NCBI GenBank assembly: GCA_963798485.1
Contig: CAWCTR010000010.1
Location: 32,001 to 96,000, forward strand
Source of the DNA: an uncultured delta proteobacterium
Lineage (GTDB): Bacteria; Desulfobacterota; Desulfomonilia; UBA1062
DNA length: 64,000 nt
Direction: 5' to 3'
Positions 39,082 to 46,978 of the stretch are shown piece by piece. The notes below the pieces were generated by a model. It was not told the origin of the DNA. It ran no database searches and was given only the letters and a program-made list of their open reading frames with translations. A program made the position numbers and the translations under genes. How positions within the stretch are numbered: the first letter of the stretch is position 1; every line of letters starts with the position of its first letter.

Positions 39082-42000
39082 ATGAACAACACTTGCAAAA
39101 GGTTTTATAGTGGGTCTTTGTATGGCTTAATATCCGTATCTCTTCTATGCAGAGTACTTCTATTCCTGATTCTGCTCAACATTGCATCCATCCCTCTCAT
39201 TAATAATGTCGCAGCCTGCCCGCCGGACCTCAAAGGGGATGTGGTTTTCGACAAGGACCGGCCCCTGGGGAGCGAGATCACGCTGAACAGCACGCTGTTC
39301 AATGTCTCGGGCAACCCCCTCTTCTATCAATGGTGCGGCCCTTTCTCCACGGTGATGGACCCCGGACCGATTGTCTTCCTACCCGAAGGCACCCATGCCA
39401 TAACACTGTTCGCCTATGAGGGCATTCAGCGCTCCGGCCCGTTTACGCTCTATTTTGCAGTTGACCCTGAGTATTACATCCTGCCCATCGCCCTGAAAGG
39501 TAAAGTGTTTGTCGGCTGGCTGCCTGTAAAAGATGCACAGCAGTATCAGCTATACCGGGCGATTGAGACAACCCCCTCCAGTTTTGTAAAGATAGCTGAT
39601 CTCCCATCAAGCTCTATCACCTACACTGACCCCAATCTCAGGGATGCAACATACTTGTATGTCCTGGGCGCACTGGTGAACGGTAAGTGGACTTTTTCCC
39701 ACATAGCTAGCGCGCACCCGTTTACCAGCCTCCCCAAGCTGAACTATCCACCGGTCATATACTCGCAGCCCGTCATCCCGGCTACGGTGGACGTGCCGTA
39801 TACCTACAATGTCCTGGCGATCGACCCGCTGCCCGATATCCTCACCTACAGCCTCCTCAGCTCACCCCCGGGAATGACCATAAACAACCTGACCGGTCTC
39901 ATCCAATGGATGCCGCCCGCCATGGGCGATTACGAGGTTATTGTCAAGGTCAAGGACTTGAAGAACACCTACATGATCCAGACCTTCATTGTGGAAGCTG
40001 ATGAATTGAAGGCCCCCAACAGACCTCCCGTCGCCCATGCAGGCGGGCCGTATACCGCGGATGTCGGCAAGGCAATGGTCTTCGACGGCTCTGCAACATA
40101 CGACCCGGACGGTGATACCCTGCAGTATGCATGGAACTTTGGTGACGGCAATAATGGAACCGGTGTATCTCTCAGCCATACCTATAACACCGTAGGTGCG
40201 CATCAGGTCACACTCGTGGTCACGGACGGCAAAGGCGGGGTTTCAACCGATGCCACAACTGTAACAGTAACCTGTCAACAGCCCATGGTGGAGTTCTCAG
40301 CCGACCCGAATTCCCTACGCCCAGGCGACCCGTGCACCCTCGTATGGTCTTCGGTAAACGCACAGAATGTAAGCATCGATGACGGCATCGGGCCTGTCAA
40401 TGCATCGGGAACCATGACAATACACCCCCAGAGCACAACGACCTACACCATCATGGCCGCAAGCCCTTGTGATAGCGCCACAAAGTCCGTTACGGTGATC
40501 GTGAACCAGCCGCCCGTTGTAACCATAGACGCCTCCCCGAAATCCATTATCCTAGGCCATTTTGCAACACTCACCTGGACCTCCGCCAACGCGGCTGCCA
40601 TCACCATCGACCAAGGCATTGGCTCGGTTATGCCGAATGGCTCCTTGTCGGTATCTCCGGCAACAGCCACCAACTATACCATTACCGCCCAGGGCCCCGG
40701 CGGGACCGCCACTGCCAGCGTCGAAGTAAAGGTAAGCCCTCCACCGGCTCCCACAGTAAGTTTAACTGCAAACCCCACATCCATAATCCAAGGCGCATTT
40801 TCCACCCTCACTTGGACCTCCGCCAATGCCGACACCCTGAGCATCAGTAGCGGCATCGGCCCGGTCAACCCGAACGGCTCCACTATTGTAACTCCCACTC
40901 AGACCACCACCTACACCATCACTGCCCTTGGCCCTGGCGGGACTGCTACTTCGAGCGCTGCAGTCACGGTAACGCCTGCAAACGGCCCTCCCAGAATCGA
41001 CAGTTTTACTGCCGCCTGCGGCGATAACCCTATCCTTAGAGGTTCATCCACTACACTAAGCTGGCGTTGCTCCAATGTGGATAATGTCACAACAGTCTAC
41101 ATCGAACCTGTAGGCTCGATTAATATCAGCGCATCTCCTCTTACAGTCTCCCCCCAGGTGACCACCGCCTATAACCTCACGGTTTCGAACCAGTGGGGTT
41201 TTGCGAGCGCGCAGGTCATCGTGAAGGTAACGGTTCCCCGTACGCCGCTGCCCGACGGGTCCTTCGGGAAACAGTATGAAGGGTTCATCCCCATTGATTC
41301 TACAGTGCAGCAATATAATACCAACCGGTTTTCTGTGATCACCGGCATCATGCAGGACAATACCAACGCCCCGCTGCCCGGGGTATCGGTCACGATCCTC
41401 GGACACCCCGAGTACGGCACGGCACAGACAGACAGCCAGGGGAGATTCGCACTGCCTGTTGAAGGCGGCAGCCTCATGACCGTGGTATACAGCAGGAATG
41501 GCTTTCTCATAGTGCACCGGAATCTCAATGTACCGTGGAATGAAATAGCTGTTGCCGAGACCAGCGTGATGATCCCACGGGATACGGCGGCGACTACCAT
41601 CACCCTTGACGGGAACCCTCAAGCATCCTTTGTTCACCAGAGCGGTATCTCATCGGATAAGGACGGCACAAGGTCATGCACCCTGGTATTCAAGGGAGAC
41701 GCCATTGCAACAGCCGTAGATGCCGCAGGTAACACCACCAAGACCCTGCCAAGCACGATGTCGGTCAGGGTAACCGAGTTCACCGTGGGTCCTAATGGGA
41801 ACCCAGCCATGCCCGCTGAGCTTCCGCCCCAATCGGCATACACCTTCTGCGCCGAGTTCCAGGTAGACGGCGTCGAGAGGGTCAGGTTCAGCAAGCCCGT
41901 GGTTGCATGGGAGGATAACTTCCTCGGGTTACCTGTCGGCACCATAATCCCGGTAGGTTACTATGACCGGGATAAGGGTGTATGGGTACCCCATGCCAAT

Positions 42001-46700: not shown

Positions 46701-46978
46701 TTAAACCAACTGGAAAATTTCCAAAATCTCCCGATGCACCATGTAGTGGACCTCTTGGATTTATTGGCGCAAGCGCTTGGGCAGGTGCCTCATTAGGTCC
46801 CATATCTGGTGGGTATAACTCCTTAGCAGGATTATCAATTTATCAACAAAGCGATGGGCGCCCGGATATGAGTTATATAGAACAGAGTGGACCATATGGA
46901 AGTTTAGTAGGTAAATCAGGCTGGGGGGTCAAATTGGGAGGTGGAATCAATATTGTAGATGTCGGAGTTGCATGGTGA
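43748..46978 (+). CDS. Teneurin-like Rhs protein, C-terminal part (end of NHL, YD shell, Rhs-associated core, toxin tip)
   Basis: Continues ...[18 protein letters not shown]; many YD repeats; [23 protein letters not shown]..KDP and [12 protein letters not shown] cleavage motif; ~130-aa Gly-rich tip. Confidence 0.92.
   Translation: [1076 protein letters not shown]

Follow-up and report, generated by a model that had tools for sequence, protein, structure and literature searches.

The window analysed here is a stretch of 64,000 nucleotides (nt) from an uncultured delta proteobacterium (GTDB lineage Desulfobacterota; Desulfomonilia; UBA1062; assembly GCA_963798485.1, contig CAWCTR010000010.1, positions 32,001 to 96,000 of the forward strand). 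Its forward strand carries a large gene that, judged by its sequence, is a bacterial teneurin-like protein (TLP) gene and a member of an already published class. This single gene of 2,646 codons runs from position 39079 or 39082 of the window to 46978, and is spread over two reading frames of 1570 and 1076 amino acids (aa), which overlap by 44 nt with a frame offset of +1. An earlier note, made by a model from the letters of this DNA, had described one gene over 39082..46978, and the two open reading frames (ORFs) indeed fill this interval, with a start codon at 39079 or 39082. Apart from the frame break, the gene holds no other stop across its 2,646 codons. Its features are as follows.

39066..39071, forward strand: Shine-Dalgarno-like AGGAGG, read from the sequence, 7 nt 5' of the GTG at 39079 and 10 nt 5' of the ATG at 39082.
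39079-43791, forward strand: ORF1, 1570 aa, with its stop codon at 43789-43791.
43748-46978, forward strand: ORF2, 1076 aa.
39079..39219, forward strand: N-terminal signal with basic residues; its hydrophobic segment spans aa 16-34 (numbering from the ATG), and a lipobox-like VAAC follows (aa 44-47, 39208-39219; codon of Cys47 at 39217-39219).
39220..40017, forward strand: first part of the stalk (aa 48-313), about three modules of putative immunoglobulin (Ig)/FN3-like type.
40018..40269, forward strand: PKD domain (aa 314-397; PKD_4 of Pfam, E 1e-23; PKD domains of collagenase ColH, E 3.5e-22).
40270..41268, forward strand: four tandem Ig-like repeats of ~85-110 aa each (aa 398-730), seen in the translation and as a DNA repeat.
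41314..41571, forward strand: teneurin TTR-like (carboxypeptidase-regulatory-like) domain (aa 746-831; PF25020, E 2.7e-18).
41572..42333, forward strand: TIP (teneurin insertion protein) region (aa 832-1085), aligned to residues about 479-724 of PDB entry 9ifo.
42334..42909, forward strand: FN-plug (aa 1086-1277), containing all four of the motifs quoted below as likenesses to animal teneurins.
42910..43915, forward strand: NHL beta-propeller in both frames, with TEN_NHL/NHL repeats (Pfam and PDB matches).
43762..43765, forward strand: run of four T at which the frame switches, a +1 change in the last NHL blade.
43916..46345, forward strand: YD/Rhs shell (ORF2 aa 57-866; TEN_YD-shell, 8e-38; RHS_repeat, 4.8e-25).
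46346..46582, forward strand: Rhs-associated core with an aspartyl autoprotease motif (ORF2 aa 867-945; Rhs_assc_core of NCBIfam, TIGR03696, E 1e-19).
46583..46978, forward strand: glycine-rich C-terminal domain (CTD), here called the tip (131 aa plus stop; 30 Gly, i.e. 23%, and 14 charged residues).

Bacterial TLPs have been defined by hidden Markov models of the FN-plug, NHL and YD shell (Raoelijaona et al., Nat Commun 2026, PMC13018210). According to that paper, they occur in 139 genomes of six phyla, including the Thermodesulfobacteriota, with Syntrophobacter fumaroxidans, Desulfosudis oleivorans, Desulfonema and Desulfobotulus among the hosts. TIP is present in 96% of them, and the TLP of Bacillus inaquosorum (BiTLP; PDB 9ifo/9pt5) has been solved by cryo-EM (PMC13018210). 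The earlier note overrated the novelty of the gene, as the class is published, Thermodesulfobacteriota included. Its statement that the teneurin superfold occurs in bacterial toxins agrees with this published class and its cryo-EM structure (PMC13018210). The main reading given there, a teneurin-like Rhs/YD toxin carried by an Ig/PKD stalk, is supported.

Both ORFs were compared by phmmer with all PDB chains. The best matches for either were two entries named 'teneurin-like protein', 9ifo and 9pt5. Residues 732-1277 of ORF1 aligned to residues 379-923 of their chains (whole-protein E 3.4e-81), and residues 4-949 of ORF2 to residues 1213-2148 (E 2.5e-124). Animal teneurin-2/3/4 matched the FN-plug block (aa 1084-1188; E 1e-27 to 1e-29) and the shell (E 1e-45 to 1e-52). 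Type VI secretion system (T6SS) Rhs effectors matched just the last 100-300 residues of ORF2 (E 1e-19 to 1e-32). The FN-plug, NHL and YD shell are present in the class-defining order, with TTR and TIP on the 5' side of the FN-plug. Pfam, NCBIfam and PDB matches thus agree on the domain order proposed in the earlier note, to which the TIP domain between TTR and FN-plug is added, and the FN-plug/NHL/YD arrangement on which that proposal hinged shows homology to solved TLP and animal teneurin structures. The Pfam model FN-plug_TEN1-4 matched weakly and below its cut-off (aa 1128-1188, E 0.003), and an AlphaFold2 model of the whole ORF2 from a 5-row alignment was poor (pLDDT 56, pTM 0.32).

All motifs quoted earlier are present: VHEDIPVPGTDISLHYASSR (42355-42414), FVWDGLDAWG (42559-42588), GWSANINHH (42817-42843) and IIYKGDG (42865-42885) in the FN-plug, and DPVGL (46568-46582) at the end of the Rhs core. 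The first four had been taken as conserved blocks of animal teneurins. This likeness holds for VHEDIPVPGTDISLHYASSR and FVWDGLDAWG, which lie inside the teneurin-aligned FN-plug block, whereas GWSANINHH and IIYKGDG were seen aligned to the bacterial TLP only. With the animal teneurins (PDB 6fb3, 6fay, 8r50) the protein shares the FN-plug/NHL/YD superfold (E 1e-27 to 1e-52). Unlike them, it has no EGF repeats, ABD or Tox-GHH by Pfam and no intracellular domain, its CTD is unrelated, and it keeps the DPxG protease motif that mammalian teneurins lack (PMC13018210).

The likeness to BiTLP extends along the whole superfold, in the order TTR, TIP, FN-plug, NHL, YD shell, Rhs protease and short CTD, and takes in a stalk of adhesion type at the N-terminus as well as small downstream genes (PMC13018210). 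The class motif combines an Rhs core PxxxxDPxG, a second DPx[GLR] 20 residues on its 5' side and a conserved Arg; BiTLP is cut after this Rhs motif (R2103, D2116, D2140) and a second time at G723/S724 in the FN-plug, and its CTD lies inside the shell, held by the disulfide C719-C2216 (PMC13018210). The corresponding protease residues in ORF2 are R904 (46457-46459), D917 in DPIL (46496-46498) and D941 in DPVGL. Their spacing of 13 and 24 residues equals that in BiTLP, and 20 residues separate DPIL from DPVGL. By analogy, the R904/D917/D941 protease would cut after DPVGL. Cys1076 and Ser1085 of ORF1 align, by residue count along the alignment, with C719 and the G723/S724 cleavage site of BiTLP, and both residues are kept in two other TLPs, P0003 and P0004. 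The former, of 2593 aa, is the orthologue in genome G002, which belongs to the same genus.

The stalk and the N-terminus complete this picture. The N-terminus is predicted to be a Sec/SPII lipoprotein signal, from a lipobox pattern match, and SPII lipoprotein signals are also predicted for Gram-negative TLPs (PMC13018210). The lipobox Cys is preceded by AA in P0003 as well (AAAC there, VAAC here). The 'signal/TM' of the earlier note is thereby refined to a hydrophobic segment plus a lipobox-like VAAC, and this pattern is consistent with its view of the protein as Sec-dependent and surface-tethered. The stalk appears to comprise about eight Ig-like/PKD domains in total. Its first part gave a marginal Pfam match (Ig_SIBA-E_2nd, aa 261-307, E 2.2e-6) and is 64-70% identical to G002 over aa 51-300. 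The four repeats of aa 398-730 have no Pfam model; the same repeat type recurs at the N-terminus of P0004. In BiTLP the stalk consists of BIG domains, in contrast to the PKD domain and novel Ig-like repeat found here.

YD shell, predicted aspartyl autoproteolysis of the Rhs core and a presumably encapsulated polymorphic toxin are also shared with the T6SS Rhs effectors RhsA, RhsP and Tse5 (PDB 7q97, 8h8a, 8cp6) and with the BC shells of Tc toxins. Moreover, the genome contains T6SS sheath genes, TssC/VipB (PF05943, E 1e-139), on contig C5, which would suit a T6SS-delivered Rhs effector. We nevertheless consider this reading highly improbable. The T6SS genes lie on another contig, no PAAR motif was found in the whole genome (97.5% complete), Pfam finds no PAAR, VgrG or DUF6531-type N-terminus in the protein, and the protein begins with a signal peptide and Ig stalk. 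Unlike T6SS Rhs effectors and Tc toxins, it has a Sec signal and a stalk, its FN-plug and NHL replace the T6SS plug/prePAAR, and no PAAR/VgrG or TcA partner accompanies it. The earlier note had already stated that such partners are absent from the window, and among the 59 of 61 window ORFs scanned with Pfam none is a T6SS or Tc component. Likewise, there was no SpvB/TcdB or TcA Pfam match in either ORF of the gene or in these 59 of 61 ORFs, the TcA search being limited to the window.

The tip belongs to no Pfam or NCBIfam family. TLP CTDs are typically short (about 15 kDa) and polymorphic, several of them are toxic in E. coli, and the genes downstream are immunity proteins (PMC13018210). An exhaustive HMMER search over 1.84 billion representatives yielded a tip family of 53 clusters at E<=1e-3 and 25 at 1e-10. 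In all 53 clusters the matched stretch ends at the C-terminus of the protein or at most ~16 residues from it, and in an alignment of 31 sequences the tip directly follows DPxGL(W) wherever residues on the 5' side are present. Rhs/YD domains were found in 19 of the 23 matches scanned, two of the 19 being full TLPs; others among them are ordinary Rhs proteins whose N-termini are of peptidase C39/DUF6531, TIG/beta-helix or dockerin type. P0004 is a further full TLP with a tip of this family, and a 2312-aa TLP from NCBI carries the same tip at 55% identity. The tip of the G002 orthologue is unrelated, hydrophobic and helical. Since the tip recurs on TLPs and ordinary Rhs proteins while the G002 orthologue bears an unrelated one, it is best seen as a mobile polymorphic-toxin module.

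A search of metagenome contigs with the tip gave one locus, L031, whose tip is the nearest metagenomic relative (43% identity), and a single-tip query against genome contigs gave no match. In the ESM Atlas the tip found only unnamed clusters of low recognition value. The tip alignment matched 121 of 401 genomes of the phylum, mostly through Rhs-core columns and with about eight rows reaching the tip, so that this figure does not give the size of the tip family.

AlphaFold2 modelled the tip from the 31-sequence alignment with pLDDT 92.3 and pTM 0.79 as all beta, with six long strands, and the tip is predicted to be a small closed beta-barrel. The membrane-active tip of Tse5 is helical, in contrast to the barrel predicted here. 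The CTD of BiTLP differs in the same way, being hydrophobic and helical. A structure search with the model pointed to Vap proteins and small outer-membrane-protein (OMP) barrels, the best matches being soluble Vap proteins; Foldseek of the model against the PDB gave no match at E<=1e-3. Vap proteins form barrels of eight strands, with a 'bald', glycine-rich surface in VapD (PMC4118825); VapA attaches to liposomes and makes them permeable (PMC10100859). The Vap proteins of Rhodococcus equi (VapG 5aeo, VapB 4cv7) are only 6-10% identical to the tip, without profile similarity; an actinobacterial pathogen secretes them on their own, and they are not cargo of Rhs proteins. Some TLP CTDs, from Desulfosudis oleivorans and Paenibacillus oryzisoli, were classed as 'OMP' by structure search (PMC13018210). 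They share with the tip a likeness to small OMP barrels, a comparison of structure-search class and not of sequence; a motif search for OMP-type CTD sequences in the supplements of that paper found none.

Across the tip family, four of the six strands alternate their faces, with 49-68% large hydrophobic residues on one face versus 57-73% Gly/Ser/Ala/Thr/Asn on the other. Because of this strand-face pattern, the properties of the Vap proteins and VapA, and the 'OMP' class of CTDs, a membrane-acting barrel is the likeliest mechanism; on the model and these analogies the tip is most likely a membrane-acting barrel and a putative toxin. A soluble, Vap-like barrel with a non-membrane target, or a tip that is no toxin at all and has nothing to do with the membrane proteins encoded downstream, remains a minor possibility, to which we give some weight. 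It would fit the soluble nature of the best structural matches, and the immunity candidates of different loci show no sequence link among each other. The low charge of the tip (14 of 131 residues), its 23% Gly, its alternating greasy and small faces, the terminal W or F in 21 of the 31 family members, and the recurrence of membrane proteins after related tips all argue against it.

Two small genes follow the tip on the same strand.

47084..47368, forward strand: candidate immunity gene 1, 94 aa from the ATG at 47084, with the longest ORF from a TTG at 46988; at least two transmembrane (TM) segments; GC content 0.35.
47397..47771, forward strand: candidate immunity gene 2, 124 aa; three TM segments; GC content 0.32.

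The longest ORF of the first gene begins 10 nt after the stop of the tip gene; the public protein collection has the 94-aa form. Homologues of the first gene were found at 83% and 55% identity and one of the second at 60%; neither gene has a Pfam or NCBIfam family. The GC content of the window is 0.50 versus 0.35 and 0.32 in these two genes. From position and topology, both are candidate immunity genes, and two membrane-protein candidates of this kind are another difference from BiTLP. The immunity entry of one D. oleivorans TLP is also a small multi-TM protein (PMC13018210 supplement). Small multi-TM ORFs lie 3' of tips in L031, L015 and L018/L033 (a conserved 75-aa protein in the latter two), and a small TM ORF follows each of three tip cassettes in G002. 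The predicted complex of the tip with the product of the first gene scored 0.23 versus a mark of 0.32.

Two other arrangements of tips and TM genes were observed. In L033 (6850-7077) and L018 (1149-1379), which come from unrelated genomes, a sister glycine-rich tip type (…GLKQFEMRIWIGG…) is followed by a conserved two-TM protein of 75-76 aa, which looks like a toxin/immunity pair. In G002, locus L010 (G002:C2, 4624-8286, reverse strand) lies behind the intact TLP gene and has three TM genes, of 87, 129 and 206 aa. Between the first and the second is a 521-aa fragment of the shell that bears another glycine-rich tip, and between the second and the third an 85-aa mini-cassette starting at DPFGL. 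This is a classic orphan tip/immunity array.

Comparison with the G002 orthologue revealed uneven divergence along the protein. Identity is 68% in the TIP, 63% in the FN-plug, 42% in the NHL and 84% in the YD shell, and it drops to 20% or less after DPxG. The NHL is thus the most divergent domain of the superfold. Among 75 TLP-type loci the NHL of G002 is nevertheless the closest (42%), the next best reaching 35-38%. Because the G002 NHL is still nearest, fast divergence is a better reading than a swap of the NHL from another lineage, and no such swap was detected. Low GC content of the NHL was dropped as a sign of transfer, as the G002 NHL is equally low (0.47). The pattern suggests that a fast-evolving propeller on a conserved scaffold contacts a variable target. 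The NHL of animal teneurins takes part in homophilic recognition.

The long Ig/PKD stalk and the fast-diverging NHL would also suit a protein that serves chiefly as an adhesin or as a receptor for kin recognition, in the manner of animal teneurins, with an NHL that binds cells and a tip without a killing role; a signalling or social role of TLPs is left open in the Discussion of PMC13018210. We judge this unlikely, since several hallmarks of polymorphic toxins are present: an intact Rhs autoprotease motif, a polymorphic tip that also occurs on ordinary Rhs toxins, small low-GC membrane genes on the 3' side, and orphan tip/immunity cassettes in G002. Moreover, toxicity in E. coli has been shown for CTDs from other TLPs (PMC13018210).

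The frame break separates the gene of this genome from that of its congener. At the break site P0003 is uninterrupted and reads ...GMGRWGFSGDGG..., whereas the sequence here reads ...GGVTPGF / IGDGG...; ORF1 ends in ...IAGGVTPGFYRRRWSCN before its stop, and the end of ORF1 and the start of ORF2 are parts of one NHL blade. Since P0003 is uninterrupted at that point and the two ORFs share one blade, we regard them as one gene with a single frame break, by which it also differs from BiTLP. Two elements on the 3' side of the gene bear on its state.

48251..48615, forward strand: remnant of a shell segment (48251-48550 with 90% DNA identity to 44664-44963; 83% aa identity to shell aa 304-427).
48654..49971, forward strand: element with a REP-associated tyrosine transposase of RAYT/TIRYT type (gene 48791-49474; Y1_Tnp, 3.6e-15).

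An indirect test of the frameshift was made by searching 208 ORFs of G002 (>=250 aa, from 400 kb) against this genome. A match was found for 186 of the 208, and 161 were orthologue-like (>=55% identity). Of these 161 genes, 156 aligned in one frame over >=90% of their length, five were partial, and none was split across frames. Indel errors are thus rare in this assembly, which makes a chance error within the 7.9 kb of this gene unlikely (roughly 10% or less). Decay at the locus is also seen in the shell remnant and the transposase copies. On balance, we lean towards a real frameshift, in which case the gene as assembled is probably a recently inactivated pseudogene.

We see a smaller but substantial chance that the gene is intact in the living organism and encodes a full-length functional TLP, the extra base in the T run being an artefact, of the assembly or of the consensus, or else a variant found in a minority strain. 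Both halves are otherwise free of stops over all codons and 61-84% identical to the intact orthologue, and the genome assembly consists of 32 contigs with 7% contamination. The break falls on a homopolymer and within that part of the gene which varies most, where assembly errors are commonest. Parts of the stretch occur in four DNA runs of one study; no contig of these runs covers 43703-43942, no RNA run is listed among the data sets that contain the stretch, and the public contigs with the region all end short of the break site. Against an artefact stand the rarity of indel errors, with none of 161 conserved long genes split, and the other decay at the locus, namely the shell remnant and the transposase insertions.

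Elsewhere in this genome, the second of two TssC/VipB copies on contig C5 (G000, 77647-78520) is split in two frames near a C4G3 run, while the copy at 57398-58297 is intact. The frameshifted copy fits a decay of conflict genes. Other split genes in the window were considered (DarP-like, ParA-like and FliS neighbours), and no support for them was found.

Several neighbouring features surround the gene. The upstream genes are housekeeping genes, encoding an RsmD-like methylase, a pantetheine-phosphate adenylyltransferase-like protein and an aminotransferase. Downstream, the transposase gene at 48791-49474 also matched REP_Tyr_transpos below the cut-off (1.7e-21) and has inverted repeats of 44 nt, whose core is GGGGAC, on both sides; a third repeat arm lies at 49941-49971, and a partial tandem duplicate of the gene, 99% identical, at 49507-49951. 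Between the shell remnant and the transposase, a purine-rich imperfect repeat of GAAAGG/GAAAAGG units (48604-48678) encodes the Lys/Glu/Arg-rich tail of a spurious ORF (47869-48891). An IS110-family transposase (DEDD_Tnp_IS110 and Transposase_20) is found at 57482-58507 on the forward strand. On the reverse strand, an ORF at 843-1412 matches only positions 101-143 of 150 of the acyl-CoA dehydrogenase C-terminal domain model and appears to be a fragment of a gene, located in the first 18 kb, which are rich in repeats. A YgiQ-like radical SAM ORF at 12604-14612 (reverse strand) matches only positions 1-42 of 151 of DUF3362, and the ORF next to it only positions 2-83 of 153 of the DarP model; no frame break was found in these two ORFs, and they may be short natural forms.

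In the genomes of 40 relatives, a full-length TLP of high identity was found only in G002, and any match in 10 of 41 genomes, this genome included. The only RHS-repeat match of the genome lies in this gene, and a search of the genome with ORF2 returned the gene and the nearby fragment only. The earlier note had called such a protein uncommon, which agrees with its full-length presence in one of the 40 relatives and with a reported occurrence in under 3% of species per phylum outside Myxococcota (PMC13018210). In GTDB species representatives there were 681 pattern matches, of which 671 encode shell/core relatives; the patterns were Rhs-core motifs, and the figure is not a count of TLPs. The best 74 loci of this search stem mostly from Desulfobacterales, Syntrophobacteraceae, Desulfosarcina, Desulfobacula and Desulfosudis, with some from Nitrospirota, Campylobacterota, Gammaproteobacteria and Myxococcota. 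For the syntroph-like host suggested in the earlier note, the only pointer is that the closest named TLP loci belong to Desulfobacterales and Syntrophobacteraceae.

Taken as a whole, the best explanation is a TLP that is a polymorphic contact-type toxin with a membrane-inserting tip and downstream immunity, encoded by what is most likely a recently inactivated pseudogene; we hold this with reasonably good confidence. If it behaves like BiTLP and other Rhs-type proteins, the product would be exported by Sec and anchored by a lipid at Cys47. The Ig/PKD stalk would present the superfold at the cell surface, with the shell enclosing the tip. The aspartyl protease of R904, D917 and D941 would free the tip after DPVGL, with a second cut near Ser1085. 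The freed glycine-rich beta-barrel, with its one greasy face, would insert into the membrane of a neighbouring cell and permeabilise it, and the two small multi-pass membrane proteins would protect the producer. The fast-diverging NHL propeller would be the likeliest surface for target recognition. As assembled in this genome, the reading frame is broken by the +1 shift in the last NHL blade. The route by which TLPs are delivered into target cells is stated as unknown in PMC13018210.

Several observations weigh against parts of this explanation. The lipobox is only a pattern match. Vap barrels are soluble, and the greasy face of the tip could be its core and not face the lipid. Similarity between the immunity candidates and the downstream membrane proteins of L031 was not significant (E 0.053 and 0.79), and an Archangium TLP with a tip of the same family has no obvious TM ORF downstream. 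The frameshifted TssC copy could mean decay, or it could mean local assembly errors missed by the orthologue test.

On its own, the finding is ordinary, since the class, the fold and the toxin logic are already published. The locus adds a TLP of Thermodesulfobacteriota type with a predicted lipoprotein-style anchor and a long Ig/PKD stalk. What merits follow-up is the beta-barrel tip family with its membrane-protein partners, together with the hypervariable NHL. The tip family is a specific candidate for an interbacterial toxin of a new, membrane-acting kind. The sole pore former given in the accessible part of the 2012 polymorphic-toxin catalogue is helical, Tox-WTIP. The aromatic C-terminus of the tips resembles the beta-signals of OMPs.

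More tentatively, there may be two exchangeable modules of specificity in the TLPs of this lineage, in a CdiA-like manner: a diversifying NHL that would pick the target, and glycine-rich beta-barrel tips that would kill by membrane insertion and be blocked by small polytopic immunity proteins. If true, Rhs/YD shells would have in the tip family their first cargo of a beta-barrel pore type. The pair formed with the G002 orthologue is a natural comparison, in which NHL and tip diverge while the shell is fixed, so that it becomes testable which domain sets target specificity. Beyond this lineage, bacterial TLPs matter as prokaryotic ancestors of teneurin receptors, by which the nervous systems of animals are wired.

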